Below, in pieces: positions 23,180 to 43,134 of a stretch of 43,134 nt of DNA. The notes under the pieces were generated by a model. The model made no database searches. It worked only from the letters and a program-made list of their open reading frames with translations, and had not been told where the DNA came from. The DNA comes from a virus, in IMG/VR virus record IMGVR_UViG_3300045988_126989, one strand, 5' to 3'. A program made the position numbers and the translations under genes. Each line of letters begins with the position of its first letter. The stretch's first letter is position 1.

Positions 23180-23502
23180 CCTATAAGCATTCCATTTTCA
23201 TCAAATTCAAAAGATGGTTTGCGTTTGGAATGTTCTTCTGCATGGCATAAGTCACACAACGCTTCCAAATTAGAATCACCAAATAGAATGTGTATATCTC
23301 TATAGTTGTCCTGGTCAATGTGTACTTTGTGGTGCACACAAGTAGACCTTGTATAGATTCCTTTTTTTAAACACCTTTCACAAAGCGGATGCGCCTTTCT
23401 ATACGCTTTACTTTTCTTTTCCCAAGCCTTGCTTGAGTAGAATTTTCTAGCATAATTTCTAGCGCCCGTTTTCGTTGCTTCTGAACCATAATATTTTTTC
23501 AT
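23131..23502 (-). CDS. HNH endonuclease associated with cos-type packaging
   Basis: CERCLKKG..VHHKVHI..LCDLCHAEEH (HNH/zinc motifs). Located directly upstream of terS/terL, as in HK97-like cos phages. Confidence 0.85.
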   Translation of the reverse strand: MKKYYGSEATKTGARNYARKFYSSKAWEKKSKAYRKAHPLCERCLKKGIYTRSTCVHHKVHIDQDNYRDIHILFGDSNLEALCDLCHAEEHSKRKPSFEFDENGMLIGCGREEECKKEHGKKE

Positions 23503-23578
23503 ATCGCTACATTCAAAGTTTTAGTTAACAGATTTAAAGGACGACAATATGAACAGTAAACCCTTTGAATGCAGTGAT
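23503..23578 (-). promoter_or_regulatory. 16-bp imperfect inverted repeat abutting the HNH start codon
   Basis: ATCGCTACATTCAAAG (23503-23518) versus CTTTGAATGCAGTGAT (23563-23578), 14/16 complementary. No Shine-Dalgarno precedes the ATG at 23502. Confidence 0.45.
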
Positions 23579-23581
23579 ATG

Positions 23582-23611
23582 AAAAAGACCCGTGTTTCCA
23601 CAGGTCTTTTT
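23582..23611. terminator. Bidirectional rho-independent terminator in the late-operon leader
   Basis: AAAAA-GACCCGTG-tttc-CACAGGTC-TTTTT. 8-bp stem with one mismatch, and A/T runs on both sides. Confidence 0.6.
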
Positions 23612-23689
23612 CAAACGGGCACAATATGAAACAATCCAAGAACTACCTTGTTTGTGTTCTAGAAGATGTTTTCCAATCTTCACAACTAC

Positions 23690-23726
23690 AGAATATCACG
23701 GTTTTTCTTTGTACACTGTACAAAAT
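23690..23726 (-). promoter_or_regulatory. Putative late promoter for the packaging/head/tail operon: same 19-nt box plus -10-like hexamer
   Basis: TTTGTACACTGTACAAAAT (23708-23726) is identical to 1692-1710. After 12 nt on the minus strand comes TATTCT (23695-23690). Confidence 0.5.
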
Positions 23727-23735
23727 GAAGAAATT

Positions 23736-23837
23736 CAGATTTTACCCCCCTCTCGTGCGCGCATGACCGAGTTTTTTTAAACTCCCCACGCCGTTCCCCG
23801 AAACGCAAAAAACTTCCGAAAGATAGGGGGGTATCTG
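23736..23837. repeat. Interrupted 13-bp inverted repeat with C6/G6 runs enclosing a GC-rich 73-nt segment (cos-region or RNA-stem candidate)
   Basis: CAGAT-ttt-ACCCCCCT (23736-23751) pairs with AGGGGGGT-ATCTG (23825-23837). An internal hairpin GAGTTT-tttt-AAACTC is present. Confidence 0.5.
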
Positions 23838-24149
23838 CTGATCTGATCCCAGCCAAGGGCGCTTTCAGGGTTCAAAATTTGGATTATGCAGCTACCACCA
23901 CACCGCACCATTCACGGCTTTAATCATATGACATTCACATATTTATTATTGTGTTGAAACATTTTTCAACACGCATTGTTGAAAGCGTGTTTCATACCAT
24001 AGCCATGACTACATCAATAGAACACGCGCGCACGTTCTTATATATGCAATAACTCTTGCATCACTCCAGTGCATTGCATCATGCGCACCCGTTCCATATG
24101 TTTTTAGCGTGTCGCTTGGCTTCCTTGATGGAGCTCAAGCAAACCACAC

Positions 24150-24173
24150 AAAAAAAGGACGCTCACCACGTCC
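24150..24173 (-). terminator. Short intrinsic terminator on the minus strand
   Basis: GGACG-7nt-CGTCC followed by U7 in minus-strand RNA. The stem is only 5 bp. Confidence 0.4.
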
Positions 24174-24196
24174 ATACATGTATATAATACCGGTCT

Positions 24197-24253
24197 GATA
24201 ACTATATCTTATAAGACCAAAAGCGAACACGCTTAAAAGCCTTATAAATAGGC
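24197..24253. repeat. Copy B of a 57-bp repeated module (copy A at 29094-29150)
   Basis: GATAACTATATcTTATaAGACCAA matches copy A at 22/24. AAAAGCCTtaTAAATAGGC matches at 17/19. Same orientation. Confidence 0.7.
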
Positions 24254-24326
24254 GCTTGCGTGCACGTTTGAGAATACAAAAGCTTTTTGAAAAAATGAGC
24301 ACCGAAAAAATATTATTAATTTTTTA

Positions 24327-24354
24327 TTGACATATACATGTATATGTTTATAAT
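24327..24354 (+). promoter_or_regulatory. Consensus sigma-70-type promoter of the plus-strand island
   Basis: TTGACA (24327-32), 16 nt, TATAAT (24349-54). Confidence 0.7.
24331..24346. promoter_or_regulatory. Perfect 16-bp palindrome (operator candidate) inside the promoter spacer
   Basis: CATATACATGTATATG is its own reverse complement. It overlaps the -35 and the spacer. Confidence 0.55.
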
Positions 24355-24358
24355 GTAA

Positions 24359-24618
24359 GTGTAAGCTAAATAAAAAGCTTACACAAAACAAACGGCGCTT
24401 ACTCATAAAGCCAAGCCAAGACAACTATAAATTGATAGATTGGACTTGATAGTATGGATAAGTTTATAAGCCTATTAAATAAATTGTTGTTTAAACTTCA
24501 TATAAAAATAAGTTTAGACATAAAAAAAGGGCGCTTACTCATAGACATAAAAGTCAATGAATAGCGTCATTAAATAAGCAAATAAATTATAGCGCCGTTT
24601 GTTTAAATAGTCAAGTTT
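24359..24618 (+). promoter_or_regulatory. Structured 5' leader of the plus-strand island
   Basis: 5' hairpin GTGTAAGCT-8nt-AGCTTACAC (24359-84). 14-nt perfect long-range complement 24386-99 / 24591-604. Direct repeat GGCGCTTACTCATA at 24394 and 24530. Confidence 0.45.
24586..24614 (-). promoter_or_regulatory. Near-consensus minus-strand promoter facing the island promoter
   Basis: Minus strand reads TTGACT (24614-09), 17 nt, TATAAT (24591-86). Predicted start sites of the two promoters are about 220 nt apart, with overlapping transcripts. Confidence 0.6.
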
Positions 24619-24631
24619 AGGAGGTGTAAAC

Positions 24632-24823
24632 ATTGTAAGAAAAAAAAGTGGTTCTTTCAATCAAATAGAATACATAAAAGAATTTAATAAAGCCAATTAT
24701 AGAAAATACGAAATCAGAGTGAAAAAAGAAAATATAGACCTTATAAAATGGCTTGATAAACAACCAAATAAAACCGCTTATATAGTAGATTTGATTGAAA
24801 AAGACATGAACAAAAAAAAATAA
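24632..24823 (+). CDS. Small ribbon-helix-helix-like DNA-binding protein with a non-canonical ATT start (63 codons)
   Basis: AGGAGG (24619-24), 7 nt, ATT. Frame open to TAA 24821-23. No ATG/GTG/TTG is available upstream. ..YRKYEIRVKKENIDLIKWLDKQPNKTAYIVDLIEKDM looks like strand-helix-helix. Confidence 0.4.
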   Translation: MVRKKSGSFNQIEYIKEFNKANYRKYEIRVKKENIDLIKWLDKQPNKTAYIVDLIEKDMNKKK

Positions 24824-24909
24824 AAACGTGAACCCCTTCCAGGTCGCCAAACTCAAAAGGGATTCACACAACGGCAATTATACACAATATTCAGGAGGTT
24901 AAGCCCGTC

Positions 24910-24960
24910 TTGTATATATTGCTTTTCTATTCTACCATAGACGGGTTAAAAAGAAAATGA
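24910..24960 (+). CDS. 16-codon upstream mini-ORF, possibly coupling translation into 24957-25439
   Basis: AGGAGG (24893-98), 11 nt, TTG. MYILLFYSTIDGLKRK. Its TGA overlaps the downstream ATG (ATGA), and the downstream gene lacks its own SD. Confidence 0.25.
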   Translation: MYILLFYSTIDGLKRK

Positions 24961-25439
24961 AAGAACAAAAATACTATTATGGAAATGCTATTAGTGAATA
25001 CGGTTTAGAAAATGGACGTGTAGACTATGCCACACTTGCAAAGGCTTTCGATGCCGTATTAAACAATGACATCATGAACTTGACTTATGACATAGGTTCA
25101 TGGGAGCAAGTGAGCGGTATTATTGACAACACGGACGAGATAGAAGAACTAGAAGAAAAAAGAGACGAGTTAGAAGAAGAAAACGAAAATAACCCATCGC
25201 AAATTATTGAAAATGAAATAAATGAAATAAATGAACAAATAGAAGAACTTGAAAACGAACAAAATGAATATCAAGAAGTATTTCAATGGTTTATTGTGGA
25301 TGATTGGGGCGCTAGATTATTACAAGATATCGATGAAGTTGTTTACTACAACGAAAAACTTGATATGTATTTATGGGGCGTTACGCACTACGGTACTTCT
25401 TGGGATTATGTTCTAACAAACATTAAAATTGATTGGTAG
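24957..25439 (+). CDS. Hypothetical protein with a central acidic coiled coil (160 aa)
   Basis: YYYGNAISEYGLENGRVDYATLAKAFDAVL.. then an E/N-rich linker then ..WGVTHYGTSWDYVL. No function recognised. Confidence 0.6.
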   Translation: MKEQKYYYGNAISEYGLENGRVDYATLAKAFDAVLNNDIMNLTYDIGSWEQVSGIIDNTDEIEELEEKRDELEEENENNPSQIIENEINEINEQIEELENEQNEYQEVFQWFIVDDWGARLLQDIDEVVYYNEKLDMYLWGVTHYGTSWDYVLTNIKIDW

Positions 25440-25452
25440 GTGTAATATTCCA

Positions 25453-25602
25453 ATGTTAACACGCAAAGATCTTGACAAGATGAGCGCCGTCCAGGTGCTC
25501 ATACTTGCATTATTAAAATTCTACTTCTATATATGTTTTGACGCATTGTTGATAGGCCTATTTTTAGGCTTATCAAACATAATATTACCACTTATTTATT
25601 AA
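25453..25602 (+). CDS. Small hydrophobic protein (49 aa)
   Basis: MLTRKDLDKMSAVQVLILALLKFYFYICFDALLIGLFLGLSNIILPLIY. Fills the gap between ORFs. Weak RBS (GGTAGGTG). Below the track cutoff. Confidence 0.3.
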   Translation: MLTRKDLDKMSAVQVLILALLKFYFYICFDALLIGLFLGLSNIILPLIY

Positions 25603-25619
25603 TTGCAGGAGGCTATACA

Positions 25620-25892
25620 ATGGAACTTTTAGAAATTAAATTATTGCATAAATATGCAAGAATAAGATCATATATGAATGATCTTATTTCAGGTAATTAC
25701 ATCATTTATGATTTTCTTTATGAATGTTTGGTGGATCATATTGAATCTTTTATTTTTGATCTTGCTTATATAGAAAATGAGAAAGTCATAAATATTTATT
25801 ATGATCAACTATTAAGCGATTCTAAACAAGTAAGTAACAAACTTTATACACTTGTTATAAATATTTTTGAAGATAATGAATGGAGGTTTTAA
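25620..25892 (+). CDS. Hypothetical protein (90 aa)
   Basis: AGGAGG 7 nt upstream of the ATG. Confidence 0.55.
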   Translation: MELLEIKLLHKYARIRSYMNDLISGNYIIYDFLYECLVDHIESFIFDLAYIENEKVINIYYDQLLSDSKQVSNKLYTLVINIFEDNEWRF

Positions 25893-25894
25893 AA

Positions 25895-26125
25895 ATGAAT
25901 AACAAAGAATATATTGAATTTACAGAAAAAAAACTAGATCGACTAAATGGATCTAGCTGCAAACCTTACACAATAACCAAACATTTAAACGGTTTATATG
26001 ATCTTAATTATGGTTTAGATACAATTGTGTGGATGCTTGAACCGCGCGAACTTTGGCTATTTGTAAATACTTTGTATACGTTGGATATTTTAGGAGGTCT
26101 TAAAAATGACAATATGGAAGCGTGA
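25895..26125 (+). CDS. Hypothetical protein (76 aa)
   Basis: ATG at 25895 lies 8 nt after GGAGG and is preferred over the track start at 25880. Confidence 0.55.
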   Translation: MNNKEYIEFTEKKLDRLNGSSCKPYTITKHLNGLYDLNYGLDTIVWMLEPRELWLFVNTLYTLDILGGLKNDNMEA

Positions 26126-26687
26126 GCGAACTCACTTTAACTACTATATTACAAATGAACGGAAACAACCCCACATTTATATTGAAGCGTTAGGAACTCC
26201 AAGCGCTTCAACTGAAAAAGTTTTAAAAGATCATGGTTTTAAATTTGATCATAATAAATGCATGTATGCAGCAGCTCAAACAAATGAATTAAGGCTTTTT
26301 GTCGCTCATGATCTTGACAAGCTTTTCAACTATGATATTCAAATATATTTCAATACAGAAGCGAAAAAAGAACTTTTCGCGCCTGATATCCAAGAAATAA
26401 AAGATATCTGTTATTTCTTCAAAATTTATAAATGCTATGTTGATATTTTAAACAAGGATCTTTTTAAGATTTGTAAACCAGGTTCAAAAAGCTTGCTAGC
26501 AACTTATAACACTTATTCAAAAACTATAGATGTTTTTAATAGAAACAAATTACAAGAAAGCTATATATACAAAAATGGTAAAATCAATAAAATGAGCGTT
26601 GAAAAAGCAGCGCCAAAGAAGAAGAAAAAAACAGCACTTACAGAACAACAAAAATTAAATGAAATGCTTGAAGCATTTCCATTTTAG
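26106..26687 (+). CDS. Hypothetical protein (193 aa) with a Lys-rich C-terminal segment
   Basis: AGGAGG 8 nt upstream. ..APKKKKKTALTEQQK.. No recognised domain. Confidence 0.6.
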   Translation: MTIWKRERTHFNYYITNERKQPHIYIEALGTPSASTEKVLKDHGFKFDHNKCMYAAAQTNELRLFVAHDLDKLFNYDIQIYFNTEAKKELFAPDIQEIKDICYFFKIYKCYVDILNKDLFKICKPGSKSLLATYNTYSKTIDVFNRNKLQESYIYKNGKINKMSVEKAAPKKKKKTALTEQQKLNEMLEAFPF

Positions 26688-26699
26688 GAGGTAAAGAAA

Positions 26700-27014
26700 A
26701 TGAAAAAAACTGTTAATGACATTAAAAATTTATGTAATTTATTGCAATATATGAGCCGTGAAGCCGGCTTATTCAGCAATGGATATATTAGTTATATATC
26801 AATTGGAAGATATGCAAAGTATGTTGATTTACATTTTATAAACGGATCTATTTACAACTTTGATTCATATACAAAAGCTTTTCTATATGATCAGCTTTTA
26901 AGATATGCAAAAAACCATCTAGAAAAATGGGATCAAAAAGAAAAAAGCAAGCGCGAAAAAAATCGCTTCAATCGCGCAAAAAGAGAACTTGAAAAAATTG
27001 AAAAGGACTTGTAA
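26700..27014 (+). CDS. Hypothetical protein (104 aa), basic coiled-coil tail
   Basis: AGGAGG RBS. Last gene before the terminator. Confidence 0.6.
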   Translation: MKKTVNDIKNLCNLLQYMSREAGLFSNGYISYISIGRYAKYVDLHFINGSIYNFDSYTKAFLYDQLLRYAKNHLEKWDQKEKSKREKNRFNRAKRELEKIEKDL

Positions 27015-27030
27015 AAAAGTCCTTTTTTTA
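27001..27030. terminator. Bidirectional terminator between the convergent plus-strand island and the early operon
   Basis: AAGGACTT-6nt-AAGTCCTT followed by T7. A-run upstream. Confidence 0.7.
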
Positions 27031-27035
27031 TACTT

Positions 27036-27586
27036 TCATTTTTTTATCTGCTTCTGGATCAGCTGTTTTTTAACCGGATTCGATGCGAAAAAGTTCATAA
27101 AAAGTTTAGTTTTAAACTCATATTCTTTTTGGTCCATTTCCTTTATATCCAAAACTCTTTTAAATATCACTATCGCGATAAAATTCGCAAACAAGTTTGC
27201 ATCTTTTTCTATTTCCTGATTCTCATAGTGTTCGTTGCTTGAATCCTTATAACTTTCAAATTCTTTTTTCCATATAGAAACGCTTCTTTCATCTATAGAA
27301 AACACTTTTTGATTCTTCTTATATACACATGCATATTGGTATAAATGTCTTATTTCATGTGCAAGATATATATATAAACTAAACTACTATCTATGGATGT
27401 ATTCAGGTTTACACAAATTACATTTTCTTTTGGGTATGATGTGCATATGCTTGTATCTTTTACTTGAAAAAGTTCTTTATTGACTGGTTTATGTTTAAGA
27501 TCATAAACCTTATCATTTGCTTTAAAGTAAACTTTTGGAATCTTTATATTTAATAGTGTGCATAGAAAACTTACATAATCATTCAT
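27036..27586 (-). pseudogene. ImmA/IrrE-type (Peptidase_M78-like) HExxH metalloprotease split by a frameshift in a TA repeat
   Basis: Track ORFs 27350-27586 and 27036-27305 join in another frame: ..SSLVYIY|LAHEIRHLYQ...NQEIEKDANLFANF (HExxH plus an E.E.AN.FA-like motif). Removing one TA from 27366-27376 restores one ORF of about 180 aa. Confidence 0.6.
27366..27376. repeat. (TA)5T dinucleotide tract at the frameshift point
   Basis: Minus strand reads TATATATATAT. A change of -2 or +1 nt fuses the two reading frames. Confidence 0.8.
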
Positions 27587-36443: not shown

Positions 36444-37343
36444 CTACTTTCTTTTCGCATAACTCAATGATTCAAGATTCTGCTTTTTCATTTTCCTTGT
36501 TGTACGAACATAGATTCTTGTGGTTTCTAAACTAGAATGTCCAAGAATATCAGCCAATTCAGCAATCGCATTTTCACCATTCTGCATCAAATACTGAATC
36601 GCGAACAAATGCCTAAATGCATGAGGATGTACTTTACCAAGCTTAATTCCTCTGCACTTACCAGCGATCATTTTTAGATCCCTGGATAACACACGAGCGT
36701 TTACAGGACTTTTCTTATCAGAAGAAGTAAATATATACCCTTCTTCGATTTTGTTGTCCTTGCAATATTTTAGAAGCTCTCGCCGCAAGTCTGAACGTAG
36801 AATGATTCCTCTTCCTTTTCCTTTGTTCATAACATACACATTGTCATCCGTTACTGCTTCTACAGTGAAGAACTGTAATTCACTCAATCGAATGCCCGTA
36901 TATCCAAATACCTTCATGATCTCGTATAAATCCATACGATTGATTTCACGGGCTTTTTTCAATAGCCTTTGAAATTCATTAGGTTCTAGAATATCATCCA
37001 AAGAATCGTCTTTCTGGACTCTTACGTTCTTCAATAAGTTCTTTGAATAATATTTCTTTAGCTTAAGAAAATTAAAATCATCATCAGAATCAATGATTTC
37101 GCTATATTTAATAAATTTATTAATGATCACAATATAGTTGTTTACTGTACTGATTTTATAATCATGCAGCAGTTTATCTTTAACACCAACTATATCGGAC
37201 TTTTGTATTTCACCATCAGGCAATGAGTTAACAAACAAGATAGTTACATGTTTGTATTTACGAATGGTATTCTTACTTTTCTCATCCGCTGTTTCTTCTT
37301 CTATGAACCCGTCAATCTTTGTTTGTAACTCATCCTTAGTCAT
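36444..37343 (-). CDS. Second tyrosine recombinase (XerC/D-like, 299 aa)
   Basis: ..GIRLSEL.., ..HPHAFRHLFA.., ..LGHSSLETTRIYV.. (the R...HxxR...Y catalytic pattern). Confidence 0.85.
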   Translation of the reverse strand: MTKDELQTKIDGFIEEETADEKSKNTIRKYKHVTILFVNSLPDGEIQKSDIVGVKDKLLHDYKISTVNNYIVIINKFIKYSEIIDSDDDFNFLKLKKYYSKNLLKNVRVQKDDSLDDILEPNEFQRLLKKAREINRMDLYEIMKVFGYTGIRLSELQFFTVEAVTDDNVYVMNKGKGRGIILRSDLRRELLKYCKDNKIEEGYIFTSSDKKSPVNARVLSRDLKMIAGKCRGIKLGKVHPHAFRHLFAIQYLMQNGENAIAELADILGHSSLETTRIYVRTTRKMKKQNLESLSYAKRK

Positions 37344-38710: not shown

Positions 38711-38755
38711 TTTTTAATGTATAATCACAGTGTAAGCAGTTAAGAGGTGAAAATC

Positions 38756-39160
38756 GTGGAAGAACATATAGGGTCGAGAATATATAAAATACGTAAACAT
38801 TTTAATTTGAGTATGGAAAAATTCGGTAAACAAATAGGTATCTCAAAAGGTTCAATCAATAACATTGAAAAAGGAACTACCAATCCATCAAGCCAAACCA
38901 TCAATTCTATATGTCGAGAATTTAACGTTGACTATGTATGGTTAACTGAAGGTATTGGAGACGATATGTTCATTTCTATACCTGATTCAAAAATAGATCA
39001 GCTAATCGAAGATTATGGATTAAAGCCAGAAGATAAATGGCTTGTGCGAGGATACCTTGAAGCACCGCCGGATATAAAGCAACAAGTTGCAGATTATTTG
39101 TGGTCAATTGTAAATAGAGAATTAGCTAAAAGAGAAAAAGAAAAGAGTAACAAGAAATAA
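38756..39160 (+). CDS. CI-like repressor (XRE-family HTH, no S24 peptidase domain)
   Basis: GTG 38756 lies 8 nt after AAGAGG. ..LSMEKFGKQIGISKGSINNIEKGTTNPSSQTINSICREF.. Divergent from the early promoter. Confidence 0.8.
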   Translation: MEEHIGSRIYKIRKHFNLSMEKFGKQIGISKGSINNIEKGTTNPSSQTINSICREFNVDYVWLTEGIGDDMFISIPDSKIDQLIEDYGLKPEDKWLVRGYLEAPPDIKQQVADYLWSIVNRELAKREKEKSNKK

Positions 39161-39220
39161 CTTGCTACTTTTTGTTTTATAAATTAAATATTTACATAGC
39201 TTATTTATGGAGGAATAGTA

Positions 39221-39907
39221 ATGGAAAAAGTAGTTTATTATTGCCCTAATTGTGGAAAAACAGTTTCTAGATTAAAAGGAAATAAAGACAATTGTTCTAA
39301 CTGCAACGGGAAAATGGTTCAAACACCGATTGATGTAGAAAAATGGAAAGAGTTGTCTGATGATGAAAAAGCAAAAATCAAGTCAGAAATATCATTTTAT
39401 GGAATCCCTGAATATAGTGGAGAACCATTAAGTGCTTTAAAACATAGATATGACTTAATTCAAATTCAGAAGATTTCCGTCACTACAACAGACATAAAAC
39501 GTGATTATGTTATTATTGGGCCTGTATTTTATCAAATAAATGATGCAGGATCAGGAAAAATGATTTTTCAAAAGCAAAAAGAATATCGTAGTGTAATAAA
39601 TTCTTTAAAAGATCAAAATCAATTAGTGAATCAAAAAGCATCAATATCTGAAGCTTTAGGTACAATATCAAGTTTTTTTGAATTAATTAATACTGGTGAT
39701 ATATCTGCATCTACAAAAGATTTATTAGGAAATGGTCACACTCAATTTGATGAAGCTTTTTTTATTTCGGTAGAAGAATTAAAAAAGCGTGCATATTATA
39801 TGGGTGCAGATGCTGTCATTGGCATGAAAGAAGAACTAAATTTAGATACTAATGGATTTCAACATTTTTATATGCAAATGTATGGAACAGCTGTTAAATT
39901 TAAATAA
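39221..39907 (+). CDS. Zinc-ribbon plus YbjQ/DUF74-like domain protein, co-transcribed with the repressor
   Basis: YYCPNCGK..CSNCNGKM at the N-terminus. C-terminus ..RAYYMGADAVIGMKEELNLD..MQMYGTAVKF resembles the YbjQ fold. GGAGG RBS. No terminator after the cI-like gene. Confidence 0.6.
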   Translation: MEKVVYYCPNCGKTVSRLKGNKDNCSNCNGKMVQTPIDVEKWKELSDDEKAKIKSEISFYGIPEYSGEPLSALKHRYDLIQIQKISVTTTDIKRDYVIIGPVFYQINDAGSGKMIFQKQKEYRSVINSLKDQNQLVNQKASISEALGTISSFFELINTGDISASTKDLLGNGHTQFDEAFFISVEELKKRAYYMGADAVIGMKEELNLDTNGFQHFYMQMYGTAVKFK

Positions 39908-39937
39908 AAGCTAGGGTAAATTCCCTAGCTTTTATTT
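39906..39937 (+). terminator. Terminator of the lysogeny operon
   Basis: AGCTAGGG-taaatt-CCCTAGCT followed by TTTATTT. Confidence 0.7.
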
Positions 39938-40054
39938 CTTCTTTGCCAACTACTTCATCAGACCAAATTTTAGCCTTCATAGCATTCAAATCTTTCCACA
40001 ATTGAGATTCTCTTTTTTCTTAAATTTAGTATCCTTCTTTTAAATTTGTGCGTA

Positions 40055-40070
40055 AATACCTATAGGTATT
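40055..40070. repeat. Perfect 16-bp palindrome
   Basis: AATACCTATAGGTATT. Confidence 0.8.
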
Positions 40071-40074
40071 AGTG

Positions 40075-40194
40075 TTATTCTTTTTTAGATGATAACAGCA
40101 GTCTTTGTGCATGATTGTACAGAATTCGCAGATCATCAACACTTAGCTTTTTCGCTAGGATAATTAATTTTGTTATCCATAAATTCCTTTTCAT
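40075..40194 (-). CDS. Small helical ORF (39 aa)
   Basis: MKRNLWITKLIILAKKLSVDDLRILYNHAQRLLLSSKKE. AAGGGA lies 7 nt upstream. A TTGACA-like promoter is at 40279-84 on the minus strand. Speculative. Confidence 0.25.
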   Translation of the reverse strand: MKRNLWITKLIILAKKLSVDDLRILYNHAQRLLLSSKKE

Positions 40195-40230
40195 AAGACC
40201 ATCCCTTTCCATTCATCTTTTATGAACAAA

Positions 40231-40248
40231 AAGGAAAACGTTTTCCTT
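40231..40248. repeat. Perfect 18-bp palindrome (operator or hairpin)
   Basis: AAGGAAAACGTTTTCCTT. Lies between the candidate minus promoter and the 39-aa ORF. Confidence 0.8.
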
Positions 40249-40368
40249 ATTCTAATATAATAAGTCTTAAATTTTATATGTCAATGCATGTTTTGTATTA
40301 AATTGTACAAATATAATACTAAAATGTGCAAGTGGTTATATATCACATTTCCAGTCTCGAATTTTTTC

Positions 40369-40377
40369 GGGGGGGGG
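40369..40377. repeat. G9 homopolymer in AT-rich intergenic DNA
   Basis: ttttttcGGGGGGGGGtag as read. Sits at the 3' end of an 18-codon ORF starting at 40324. Confidence 0.8.
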
Positions 40378-40554
40378 TAGAATTTTTAATGTACTTTTGG
40401 TTATATTATTAATGACTGATTTTGTTTTGTAAATATTTATTAATATTTTGCATTTTTAATTACTCTTTTTAAAATGCGATGTTATTATTCATGTGTACAT
40501 GATAAATATTTTAGGCTTTTTTCTATTTCCTCAAGAAAAGATTAGCAGAGAATG

Positions 40555-40600
40555 AAAAACAGATAGTGGTGTTGAGCAGCATACACTATCTGTTTTTCTT
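40555..40600. terminator. Bidirectional terminator after the int operon
   Basis: ACAGATAGTG-15nt-CACTATCTGT (10 bp), flanked by AAAAA and TTTTTCTTTTT. Confidence 0.75.
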
Positions 40601-40606
40601 TTTGTA

Positions 40607-41371
40607 TTAACTAAATAAGCCTTTCTCTTTTTCAAGATTACTGAATGGAACTGTCATTATTCCATATTCTTTAAAACCTTGTACGATATCGCTTTTTATT
40701 GTTTGAGCATCGTTTAGAATTACAATGCATTTCGCATCGTTTCTAGTCTTTTCTATATCCAACCACGCAAATACTGTAGTAGTCAGACTATCTCTAGTAG
40801 GATTGTTGATTGCCTTGCATAAGCGCTCGTTGTGATTTTTATTTCTTTGAAAGCATAGATCAAATTTTTGAGTTAGTCCTGACCTTCCAACAAATGAAAC
40901 GTTATCCGAAAAATAAATATCATTTTTAATAAAAAAGTTTGTTACATCTTCCAAGAAATATGATGTAGTACGAACTGTATTTGTTAAATACATATCGTCA
41001 ATTTGAAGCATTGTCATTGCTAATTGATGCACTTTAGACGGTAAATCCTTCTCAGATGATAAAACAGTCATTTCATTATCATCACTTAAGGAAACCCCTG
41101 ACAACATGCAAATTTGTTCAATGGTTTTTCTTCTGCTGGATTTTTTATCAATATTAATGCCTGTATCAATAAGATTATTTATAATATATCCATCATCGGA
41201 AACCAAAAACATACCGTTTTCTTTTTTATCATCCACATAGCAAACTATTGAATCTCCTATGTGATCTTCAAAAGGAAGGACTATTTCATGTGCAGTTTCT
41301 ATTTTTTTTACAGATAAATTAGATTTTAAAAAATTCAAATAATTCTTTGCAAAGTCTTTTAAATTTTCCAT
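40607..41371 (-). CDS. DUF1828/DUF1829-like two-domain protein (254 aa), function unknown
   Basis: ..VLPFEDHIGDSIVCYV..LVSDDGYIINNL.. and ..FVGRSGLTQKFDLCF..KAINNP..VILND.. recall the DUF1828+DUF1829 architecture. This is from memory and is not verified. Confidence 0.55.
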   Translation of the reverse strand: MENLKDFAKNYLNFLKSNLSVKKIETAHEIVLPFEDHIGDSIVCYVDDKKENGMFLVSDDGYIINNLIDTGINIDKKSSRRKTIEQICMLSGVSLSDDNEMTVLSSEKDLPSKVHQLAMTMLQIDDMYLTNTVRTTSYFLEDVTNFFIKNDIYFSDNVSFVGRSGLTQKFDLCFQRNKNHNERLCKAINNPTRDSLTTTVFAWLDIEKTRNDAKCIVILNDAQTIKSDIVQGFKEYGIMTVPFSNLEKEKGLFS

Positions 41372-41398
41372 AACACCATTCCTCCCTACAAAAACATT

Positions 41399-41869
41399 TT
41401 AACAAAATCTAGGCATTTCCACCACGCTATTTTTGTTTAATTCAATTACTTTAAATTTTCTTAAAAATTCTACACAATAGTTTACCAAGTTAGGATCATT
41501 GATATCAAACTTTGTTGCATATTTATCTTGGTATTGTTCGGTAAATATATGTAGATGAGTTCCATAAATAATTTCACCGTCCGGATTTTTATGAGCGTGG
41601 TTATCAGGAACTACATCCAATCGCATCAAAGGTAATTTTGCTTCTTTATCTAAGGCAAGATATGTTAGTTTATCAGGTTGTCTGTTACCTCTACGCAAAA
41701 TAATTTTGAATTTATGTTTAAATTCTTCTATAAGATAAGCTTCATATTCATTTCCTTCAGCTGGATTTGGAATTTCAATTTGTTTTTCTCGTAATCCCTT
41801 AAATCCATCTAATAATTTTCTGATTTCTTCTTCTTTCATTTCCTCGTGCACCTCTATATTAATTTTCAT
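41399..41869 (-). CDS. Hypothetical protein (156 aa) with a His-rich motif
   Basis: ..DNHAHKNPDGEIIYGTHLHIF.. Lies between int and the DUF1828-like gene, with gaps of 22 and 27 nt (operon-like). Confidence 0.55.
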   Translation of the reverse strand: MKINIEVHEEMKEEEIRKLLDGFKGLREKQIEIPNPAEGNEYEAYLIEEFKHKFKIILRRGNRQPDKLTYLALDKEAKLPLMRLDVVPDNHAHKNPDGEIIYGTHLHIFTEQYQDKYATKFDINDPNLVNYCVEFLRKFKVIELNKNSVVEMPRFC

Positions 41870-41891: not shown

Positions 41892-42989
41892 TTACAACAA
41901 CTTATTCATCATATCTACAATGCTCTTGTCTTTTGTATCAAACCAGTGTGCATATGTATTGTGCAATGTTTCAACTGTATCTCCTAAGCGCTTGGCTATA
42001 TCAAAATCTGAAAATCCAGCACCTGCCATGTTATTAATTAGAAATGATGCGTGTGAATGTCTAAAATCATGGATTCTTATTTTAGGCAATCCATCATCTT
42101 TTTCTTTTGCCTTATTATATGCATCATCAAATCTTCTTTGCACTGTCTGAGGTGATATTGGTTTATAGTATCCAAATACAAATTTATCTTTTGTAAAATC
42201 ATCCCATTTAGAACATTCTAGAAACCATTCTCGAAGCATTTTAGACAATGTATTAGGCATTGTAATAGTTCTATAGCTATTGTTTGTTTTTGGCGGTGTA
42301 AGCCATTTATTAGGGTCTTTCTCTTTGTATCTATATGTTTTGTTGATGTCTATCGTTTGCTTCCTAAAATCAATGTCTTTCCATTGTAGGGCCATTGCTT
42401 CACCTTTTCGCAATCCCATATAGAATAAAACAGAATAAAAACATTTCATCATTTGTTCATTTACTTCTTCAATAAACAAATCAAAATCATATTGCTGCCA
42501 TATTGTCATTTCTTCTTTTCTTTCATTCAATCTAAGATCACGTTTTACATATGTCATTGGATTGGTTGGAATGTATTCAGAAGTAACACCAAATTTATAT
42601 AGCTTATTTAAAAAGAAATAGATTCTTGATACATATGCCTTTGAATATTTTTCATCAAATTTGTTGATCAAGTTTTGCATTTGCCTTTTATCTAGAAAAT
42701 CAATATCTTTCATTTCCTTAGAAAGGACATTGTACAAATATTCATCTGATTTTAGTGTTGATTCTTTTACATACTTTTTATTATATTCTTTAAAAGCTTT
42801 ATATAGTCTGTCAAAATTCATGTCTGATGGAAGCATAAAGAAATCTTTCCTGAATTCAACCTCAGCTTTTTGTGCTTCCCATTTAGAATCAAAACCACGC
42901 TTACGATATCGCTTTATACATTTACCATCTTTATATATTTTTCCGGCAAACATATATTTTCCTGTCTTCTTATCTAATTCCACTGCCAT
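41892..42989 (-). CDS. int: Tyrosine integrase with an N-terminal arm-binding-like domain
   Basis: 365 aa. ..LRKGEAMAL.., ..IRIHDFRHSHASFL.., ..GDTVETLHNTYAHW.. Adjacent to the terminal repeat. AAGAGGG RBS. Confidence 0.9.
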   Translation of the reverse strand: MAVELDKKTGKYMFAGKIYKDGKCIKRYRKRGFDSKWEAQKAEVEFRKDFFMLPSDMNFDRLYKAFKEYNKKYVKESTLKSDEYLYNVLSKEMKDIDFLDKRQMQNLINKFDEKYSKAYVSRIYFFLNKLYKFGVTSEYIPTNPMTYVKRDLRLNERKEEMTIWQQYDFDLFIEEVNEQMMKCFYSVLFYMGLRKGEAMALQWKDIDFRKQTIDINKTYRYKEKDPNKWLTPPKTNNSYRTITMPNTLSKMLREWFLECSKWDDFTKDKFVFGYYKPISPQTVQRRFDDAYNKAKEKDDGLPKIRIHDFRHSHASFLINNMAGAGFSDFDIAKRLGDTVETLHNTYAHWFDTKDKSIVDMMNKLL

Positions 42990-43041: not shown

Positions 43042-43064
43042 TATTTTAATATCAAATTATACCC
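43029..43064. repeat. 9-bp inverted repeat flanking an AT-rich 18-nt spacer (core-site or operator candidate)
   Basis: GGGTATAAT (43029-37) ... ATTATACCC (43056-64). The right arm is the first 9 nt of the terminal repeat. Confidence 0.6.
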
Positions 43065-43134
43065 CAATATACCCCAAGACAAATAAAAAAGCCTTTAAAT
43101 AAAGGCTTAAAATTCGATGGAGCAGATGAGGGGA
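43056..43134. repeat. Terminal direct repeat, copy 2
   Basis: Identical to 1-79. Confidence 0.95.

Follow-up and report, generated by a model that had tools for sequence, protein, structure and literature searches.

The virus sequence IMGVR_UViG_3300045988_126989 (43,134 nt, hereafter the window) is the complete genome of a temperate, siphovirus-like phage. Beside its packaging genes lies a real, putatively self-regulated operon of eight small genes on the plus strand, here called the island. The island is present in every relative of the phage as a hypervariable array of cassettes, flanked by core genes that are nearly identical. On balance, it is probably an anti-restriction or anti-defence ('establishment') operon of a temperate phage, built of exchangeable cassettes, because the slot that is filled by gene p2 in the window holds ArdA in sister phages.

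An earlier sequence-only reading of the window had singled out seven of these genes (p1 to p7) as a candidate anti-defence or other accessory operon, and all seven open reading frames (ORFs) are found where it had placed them. The minus strand carries nearly all genes of the window, and both GC and AT skew change sign exactly across 24–27 kb. The island is not, as had been claimed, the only multi-gene block on the plus strand, which also carries a CI-like helix-turn-helix (HTH) gene and a 228-aa gene at 38747–39907. The seven ORFs, together with a 36-aa ORF in the leader that forms the eighth gene, are under purifying selection according to the ratio of nonsynonymous to synonymous divergence (dN/dS) against their orthologues. 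For the seven, this ratio is 0.11–0.36 (6–43 distinct orthologues each), and internal stops are absent from the orthologues save for one stop among 41 of p5. The sequence-only reading could recognise none of the products, and sequence searches of Pfam, PHROGs, NCBIfam, PADLOC and PDB likewise gave no significant match for any island protein, PADLOC returning only coiled-coil noise for p2 and nothing for the others.

Cassette exchange and the slot of p2

A search with p6 recovered 49 related IMG/VR loci, which constitute a sister set of about 50 phages. In these loci terL is 98–100% identical at the amino acid level, and the HNH protein and terS are 94–100% identical, whereas the island genes range from absent to 38–100% identical. 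Synonymous divergence (dS) is 0.22–0.64 in the island genes and 0.15 in terL; it is higher in every island gene, and 2–4 times higher in most. The literature describes hypervariable loci between conserved core genes as a hallmark of phage accessory regions in which counter-defence genes are abundant.

Clustering of all plus-strand island ORFs of the sister loci yields a frame of fixed order: a regulatory module, slot 2, p3, an optional p4, p5, p6 and a last slot. Two types of regulatory module occur: p1 behind the consensus promoter, and a small basic protein (cluster C6 or C33) accompanied by a divergently transcribed HTH gene. Slot 2 is filled by p2 (8 loci), C7 (19), C14 (10), C16 with or without C34/C52 (9), C44 together with C45, or C47 together with C34. 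Downstream of it, p3 comes after every slot-2 variant in 48 loci. The last slot carries p7 or its alternative C4, which is present in 38 loci with or without C28.

C7 is a full-length ArdA (PF07275, E=2.8e-35), covering model positions 1–154 of 155. p2, ArdA and C14 never co-occur; they are 160, 166 and 156 aa long, with net charges of -31, -31 and -30, respectively, and an isoelectric point (pI) of 4.05. The ArdA-carrying loci have, in place of the p1 module, a small divergent HTH gene that brings its own promoter. Since this HTH module is found where the p1 module is missing, the island always carries a dedicated regulator. In the ArdA-type loci, what is left of the p1 ribosome-binding site, AAGTTTAGGAGATGTAAACATAGAAGAAAAAAG, is joined to the conserved flank about 790–850 nt from the HNH start (in locus L004), which shows that the HTH-type module replaced the p1-type module by deletion and insertion.

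The p2–p3 pair is not confined to the sister phages. At 80–96% identity, it also lies directly upstream of terS and terL in an unrelated lineage of phages of about 50 kb, and 60 relatives of this second lineage (L159–L218) have terS sequences that are 96–100% identical. Their island consists of a p1-like gene, a variable slot, p3 and a p7-like gene, the last at 34–39% identity to p7. The variable slot is occupied by p2 in most of these phages, by C14 in two, and by C34-, C45- and C47-like genes, among others. This is an independent and equivalent island, likewise hypervariable and supplied from the same cassette pool. The promoters of its p1-like gene and of its p2 have a common palindrome, ATCATGAT. 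A Pfam search of the second-lineage cassettes gave no match except an HNH; a PemK/MazF-like toxin gene and an HNH_3 gene lie nearby in the region from the p1-like gene to terS. More distant p2 homologues (45–57% identical) are found on larger elements, where their neighbours are a p1-like gene, a Uma2 nuclease, a ParB-like protein and a membrane protein with two helices.

The p2 family is large. An exhaustive profile-free search collected 644 clusters at 50% identity with E <=0.001, 307 of them below 1e-10, and a word-indexed search returned 3545 proteins. Among 77 diverse relatives, no Pfam domain or fusion was found beyond coiled-coil noise; p2 has no match in annotated phages and one partial match in annotated plasmids. 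An AlphaFold2 model based on an alignment of these 77 members (pLDDT 96.1, pTM 0.82) consists of an alpha/beta domain, to which the N-terminal and C-terminal thirds contribute, and a long hairpin of antiparallel helices (residues 59–103). Foldseek searches with this model gave no significant match, the best E being 0.74 in PDB and 0.025 (over 76 columns) in BFVD. The possibility that p2 is a divergent ArdA was rejected, as there is no ArdA profile match at E up to 1 and no fold match, the three-domain fold of ArdA included.

The conserved residues of p2 sit in the globular part of the model. The hairpin varies in length from 7 to 149 residues across the family while staying acidic (median charge -19). 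For the whole protein, the median charge is -30, and 95% of the 77 diverse members have a charge of -15 or below, so that strong negative charge, by which DNA mimics are recognised, extends across the family. Charge that is kept without sequence conservation is as expected of a DNA mimic, and p2 may act by electrostatic DNA mimicry.

Promoter, regulator and structured RNA

The control elements that had been noticed in the sequence are present (Table 1). The proposed promoter is the sole 12/12 match to the consensus in 23400–27400. The palindrome in its spacer occurs once in 43 kb even when up to three mismatches are allowed, against an expectation of 0.05. At the other end of the island, the hairpin of the proposed bidirectional terminator scores on both strands. 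The claim that every gene has a strong AGGAGG site fails for p2, which has none within 15 nt of its ATG, and for p3, whose site is weak (GGTAGGTG).

p1 has no ATG, GTG or TTG start codon. Its start is an ATT at 24632, 7 nt after GGAGG, and in the leader type of the window an in-frame stop lies upstream of it. In sister sequences, the start codon is ATT in 17 of 19 and ATA in the other two, and the gene has a dN/dS of 0.31. Such a weak, conserved start codon would delay shut-off and may thereby act as a timer. No DNA-binding family was found for p1 in Pfam, NCBIfam or a PDB profile search. When p1 was compared by hhalign with a small, hand-typed alignment of ribbon-helix-helix (RHH) proteins, its predicted strand and first helix fell onto those of Arc, but at a probability of 0.4%.

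Across the 19 p1-type loci, the promoter is kept and the sequence of the spacer palindrome varies with the p1 allele. The window and close p1 alleles have ACATATACATGTATATGT, and another version, ACATATGCATGCATATGT, carries changes on both arms relative to the window. The same half-sites around a different centre accompany p1 proteins at 62–65% identity, ACATTA...TAATGT accompanies those at 54–56%, and ATACGGTTATAACTGTAT is found with a p1 at 38%. In an alignment of the p1 alleles (A3), the residues that vary most fall where an RHH protein would have its DNA-reading strand. Co-variation of the palindrome with the p1 allele supports an operon-encoded repressor and its operator, and it is the main support for a p1 that would act as an autorepressor on the palindrome within the promoter spacer.

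The predicted transcript begins with a stem-loop which, by analogy with known 5' stem-loops of Firmicutes mRNAs, may have a stabilising role. The leader that follows has a minimum free energy (MFE) of -69.5 kcal/mol (z = -6.3), and its closing helix is retained via compensatory changes across three leader variants. A leader had been predicted here, but this region is more than a leader, as it holds the conserved 36-aa ORF inside its stable fold. This ORF has a dN/dS of 0.07 and a proportion of synonymous differences (pS) of 0.44 in nine distinct sequences; in the window it has a weak ribosome-binding site or none at all, and it is enclosed by the long-range helix. Other leader variants have different small ORFs at the same place (C25, 43 aa; C36, 54 aa). 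An antisense promoter-like site lies in the leader, with its -10 kept in all leader variants, and a direct repeat, GGCGCTTACTCATA, is found at 24394 and 24531. Taken together, site and repeat could point to antisense control of either the leader or the small ORF.

A second structured RNA precedes slot 2. In this 5' untranslated region (UTR), helix Ha pairs 24873–24884 with 24911–24923 and helix Hb pairs 24902–24910 with 24939–24947. An AGGAGG at 24893–24898 lies between the helices, 58 nt upstream of the p2 ATG, and an A-rich stretch follows Hb and leads to the ATG. Forty distinct UTRs, drawn from two phage lineages, retain both Ha and Hb, which occur in four or more co-varying versions. Pairing was counted in each sequence separately and not from the MAFFT alignment, in which the helices are out of register; Hb has a mean of 8.05 bp (4.1 in shuffles) and Ha a mean of 10.1 bp (6.0 in shuffles). 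The UTR has no Rfam match. Different slot-2 genes join this element exactly at the ATG, and it may serve both as a structure-dependent ribosome-binding site and as the recombination junction of the cassette slot.

Table 1. Features of the island and its upstream flank, in window coordinates (strand given as a point where a feature belongs to neither strand).
Feature	Coordinates	Strand	Description
Candidate cos site	23745..23835	.	G+C-rich patch in the 800-bp non-coding region; weakly indicated
Sigma-70 consensus promoter	24327..24354	+	TTGACA-16-TATAAT; 12/12 match; kept in place in 19/19 p1-type sister loci
Putative p1 operator	24330..24347	.	18-bp perfect palindrome ACATATACATGTATATGT within the promoter spacer
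5' stem-loop of predicted transcript	24359..24384	+	GTGTAAGCT...AGCTTACAC; in MFE and centroid folds; kept in all p1-type loci
Structured leader	24386..24604	+	Closed by 14-bp long-range helix, 24386-24401 with 24590-24604
36-aa ORF (eighth gene)	24454..24564	+	MDKFISLLNKLLFKLHIKISLDIKKGRLLIDIKVNE; inside leader; 12 loci (cluster C10)
Antisense promoter-like site	24586..24614	-	TTGACT, 17-nt spacer, TATAAT; 11/12; in 3' arm of leader, pointing leftwards
p1	24632..24823	+	63-aa basic protein, pI 9.8; putative autorepressor; RHH-like by pattern only
Hairpin after p1	24828..24867	+	GTGAACCCCTT...AAGGGATTCAC, without U-tract; present in fold; sister variants keep the hairpin with a different loop
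Structured 5'UTR of slot-2 gene	24873..24947	+	Pseudoknot-like; two interleaved helices (Ha, Hb) around AGGAGG
p2	24957..25439	+	160-aa acidic protein, net charge -31, pI 4.05; candidate anti-restriction protein; dN/dS 0.11
p3	25453..25602	+	49-aa hydrophobic peptide; probable small membrane protein; dN/dS 0.36
p4	25620..25892	+	90-aa acidic protein; optional cassette, in 31 of ~50 loci; dN/dS 0.17; no family match
p5	25895..26125	+	76-aa protein; conserved island core; 50 loci, 60-100% identity; dN/dS 0.16
p6	26106..26687	+	193-aa basic protein; conserved core; all loci, 81-94% identity; dN/dS 0.13
p7	26700..27014	+	104-aa basic protein; last slot; 12 loci; dN/dS 0.12
Bidirectional intrinsic terminator	27000..27027	.	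10-11 pairs then T-run on both strands; shared with the converging early operon

Downstream genes and the surrounding genome

Among the genes downstream of slot 2, p5 and p6 overlap by 20 nt. A homologue search with p6 found 128 relatives, none of them distant, so this protein is lineage-restricted. The p6 family ends (26600–26687 in the window) in AAPKKKKK followed by ...NNMIDDFEFPF in the majority of members or ...EMLEAFPF in the window (alignment A1), and this C-terminus resembles the acidic tip by which the bacterial single-stranded DNA-binding protein (SSB) docks partner proteins. The likeness to the SSB tip is a lead only. An AlphaFold2 model of p6 reaches a pLDDT of 67 and matches no fold, the oligonucleotide-binding (OB) fold included. 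A role for p6 as an OB-fold protein or SSB is unsupported beyond the C-terminal motif, given that only close relatives, a mediocre model and no fold match were obtained.

The phage genome runs from an amidase endolysin gene (266–1333) to a tyrosine integrase gene (41892–42989) as its terminal genes, and the two ends of the window carry a 79-bp direct repeat (1–79 and 43056–43134). An integrated form is found on one metagenome contig, where the phage adjoins host thrS and smpB. In a 58-kb scaffold, longer than one genome length, the integrase gene comes straight after the lysin gene, a junction that indicates an excised or concatemeric form. The order of genes is early genes, island, an 800-bp non-coding stretch, HNH, terS, terL, portal and other late genes. 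GenBank phages provide no DNA match to the window and no close relative, the best terL match among them being at most 48% identical. The sole species-level genome match is a metagenome-assembled genome labelled Solobacterium. Rfam and tRNA scans of the window returned nothing.

The non-coding region between the island promoter and HNH (23503–24300) is kept in all sister phages at 81–92% and is absent from the second lineage. One IMG/VR contig starts within its G+C-rich patch, at window position 23794, directly after Illumina adapter sequence, and another starts at 23728. The order HNH-terS-terL is typical of cos phages. Together, the G+C-rich patch, the contig end and this gene order suggest a cos site in the non-coding region upstream of HNH. 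In lambda and HK97, the terminase-proximal end is packaged first and the opposite end is injected first. If the same holds here, some 0.5 kb probably separates the island from the cos end that would be the last to be packaged and the first to be injected, and the promoter of the island points inwards. An island near the first-injected end with an inward promoter would be the first DNA available for transcription. First entry is the weakest step of the argument, the packaging direction being taken from phages of the lambda/HK97 type. The same non-coding region also has an inverted repeat of 24 nt at the HNH start (23495–23518 with 23563–23586) and terminator-like hairpins on the minus strand at 24173–24157 and 24234–24221.

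Several other features lie outside the island. A second tyrosine-recombinase gene (36444–37343, minus strand; 299 aa, Phage_integrase) is found inside the early region, in addition to the terminal integrase. A second likely accessory block at 39221–41869, between the CI-like repressor and the integrase, encodes a YbjQ-like protein of 228 aa, a DUF1828/DUF1829 protein and a DUF6978 protein; prophages often place defence or conversion genes between these two landmarks. To the right of the island, two small ORFs on the minus strand (27036–27586) look like split halves of one HExxH protein, which is intact in the second lineage (189 aa; L059, 3807–4376). The 89-aa ORF at 27036–27305 has 48–55% identity to the C-terminal half of the L059 protein, and the 78-aa ORF at 27350–27586 is like its N-terminal half by eye only. 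This split arrangement is kept in sister phages.

Function of the operon

The establishment reading leads to the following proposed course of events. Naked phage DNA would enter a cell that contains no p1, and the consensus promoter would fire at full strength. The resulting mRNA, bearing the 5' stem-loop and the structured leader, would encode in order the 36-aa peptide, p1, p2 from its structured ribosome-binding site, the membrane peptide and four more small proteins. p2 may then do as ArdA does in the sisters, neutralising a DNA-binding defence enzyme, most likely a type I restriction-modification system, and probably by electrostatic DNA mimicry. p1, made slowly from its ATT start, would accumulate, bind the palindrome between -35 and -10 and shut the operon. 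Expression would thus be a short burst, and the operon would be quiet in the lysogen.

Such an arrangement has parallels in conjugative plasmids. On plasmid p576, an RHH repressor controls the strong promoters of variable, mosaic anti-restriction 'establishment' genes, and their expression upon entry is a transient burst in the naive cell, an arrangement that has been explicitly likened to acr-aca loci. The island resembles the establishment operons of the p576/pLS20 family in having a putative repressor over the strong promoter of mosaic genes. It differs from them in that the RHH fold of p1 is unproven and in belonging to a double-stranded DNA phage rather than a conjugative element, with no relaxase or oriT present. 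Anti-defence genes of conjugative plasmids occupy the leading position on the entering DNA, a placement that follows the logic proposed here. Comparable positions are known in phages: T7 (gene 0.3, ocr) and T5 (pre-early, first-step-transfer) carry counter-restriction genes on the first-entering end, behind strong host-type promoters. In contrast to T7 and T5, the phage studied here is temperate and siphovirus-like with an integrase, its first-entering end is placed by analogy, and expression of the island is proposed to be limited by an autorepressor rather than by stepwise DNA entry. ArdA (PF07275) and Ocr are DNA-mimic inhibitors of type I restriction-modification. p2 matches the sister ArdA in size, charge, pI and slot, although its predicted fold matches neither protein and its charge is concentrated in a helical hairpin of variable length.

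The comparison with anti-CRISPR (acr-aca) loci, from which the anti-defence interpretation first came, extends to several traits. Like these loci, the island is hypervariable between core genes, has a strong promoter overlapped by an inverted-repeat operator, and encodes a small putative DNA-binding protein and several small unrelated proteins. In addition, the same locus of its relatives holds a known counter-defence gene, ArdA. The window itself carries no anti-CRISPR or other characterised inhibitor, and no gene of known or homology-supported anti-defence activity. The island is also distinct from acr-aca loci in that its regulator comes first rather than last, is not an HTH protein and starts at ATT, and in that the effector slot is preceded by a long structured leader, which contains a small ORF, and by a pseudoknot-like ribosome-binding site. 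Taken together, the cassette array, the presence of ArdA in the p2 slot of sisters and the co-variation of palindrome and p1 support the anti-defence or accessory reading. Homology of the products to replication or recombination proteins had been named beforehand as a result that would speak against it, as had a lack of conservation together with a lack of phenotype; neither such homology nor a lack of conservation was found.

The operon could instead benefit the lysogen. As a moron for lysogenic conversion or superinfection exclusion, it would be expressed at a low, autoregulated level from the prophage, with exclusion mediated, for example, by p3 and partner proteins. The phage is temperate and was found both integrated and excised, and the island is an autonomous transcription unit with its own promoter and terminator, oriented opposite to the lytic genes and placed between conserved genes, as is expected of a moron. 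It includes a probable small membrane peptide, and autorepression would give steady-state expression. Unlike a classic moron, this unit is common to all relatives, which differ only in its content. The same slot carries ArdA in 19 sisters, where constitutive ArdA would disarm the lysogen's own restriction; a perfect consensus promoter with an internal operator fits strong expression followed by shut-off, and no island protein matches a known defence or exclusion family. The lack of a match to known defence families in PADLOC also favours the establishment reading, next to which the moron explanation is unlikely.

Slightly less probable still is an accessory DNA-metabolism module that aids replication, recombination or circularisation of the incoming DNA, in which p6 would be SSB-like or bind the partners of SSB, and p2 would be a nuclease inhibitor of the Gam type. 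The tail of the p6 family, a basic linker ending in ...DDFEFPF or ...EAFPF, resembles the SSB tip, the island adjoins a probable genome end, and plasmid leading regions combine ssb, psiB and ardA. Yet no island protein is homologous to replication or recombination proteins of any family, the model of p6 has low confidence and no OB-fold match, and the phage has its own replication module elsewhere (DnaA-like and Phg_2220_C proteins). This explanation overlaps with establishment more than it excludes it. It is highly improbable that the island is a plasmid-style maintenance operon or a type II toxin-antitoxin operon, in which p1 would be an RHH antitoxin controlling its own expression through the palindrome and a downstream gene would encode the toxin. 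Many RHH-antitoxin operons do begin with a small basic gene, have a palindromic operator that overlaps the promoter, and continue with small genes downstream. Here, 133 nt of structured RNA separate p1 from the next gene without translational coupling, and that next gene swaps among unrelated proteins (p2, C14, C16, C44+C45, C47+C34). This spacing and the free exchange of the second gene led to rejection of the toxin-antitoxin reading; moreover, no toxin family was found, and p2 is very acidic, unlike known toxins.

A number of observations weigh against the anti-restriction reading itself. p2 is unrelated to ArdA in sequence or fold, and none of the eight island proteins of the window matches a characterised anti-defence family. 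ArdA is found only behind the HTH-type module and never behind the p1-type promoter, so that the allelic argument rests on the shared downstream boundary at p3 rather than on the entire context. An RHH fold for p1 is unconfirmed, the PDB profile search and the hhalign comparison with the hand-typed alignment both being non-significant. The position of cos comes from one adapter-tagged contig end in a dataset that has adapters at non-terminal breakpoints as well, and the p2 cassette of the second lineage is oriented towards the terminase genes rather than away from them. Finally, an autorepressed promoter also gives steady low expression in the lysogen, which would suit lysogenic conversion equally well.

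With these points considered, the evidence supports an autoregulated anti-defence or establishment operon of uncharacterised gene content, with p2 as a strong candidate for a new anti-restriction family. A broader proposal is more tentative, and less likely than not to be right. In this proposal, p2 founds a widespread, structurally new anti-restriction or anti-defence family in phages and mobile elements of Firmicutes-like hosts, which would mimic DNA through an acidic hairpin of adjustable length and be interchangeable with ArdA. It would be delivered from a plug-and-play slot whose pseudoknot-like ribosome-binding site insulates translation and provides the homology for swaps at the ATG.

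Anti-restriction proteins decide which DNA enters which bacterium, and only a handful of their families are known. Near-identical phages here mark one slot in which two or more other proteins, equal to ArdA in size and charge, can take its place, and variation at this slot yields a short, ranked list of candidates for simple plaquing assays. The locus would also represent a compact natural design for a burst followed by shut-off, combining a consensus promoter, a co-evolving operator, a weak ATT start and a structured ribosome-binding site common to unrelated genes, a design relevant to both phage biology and engineering.

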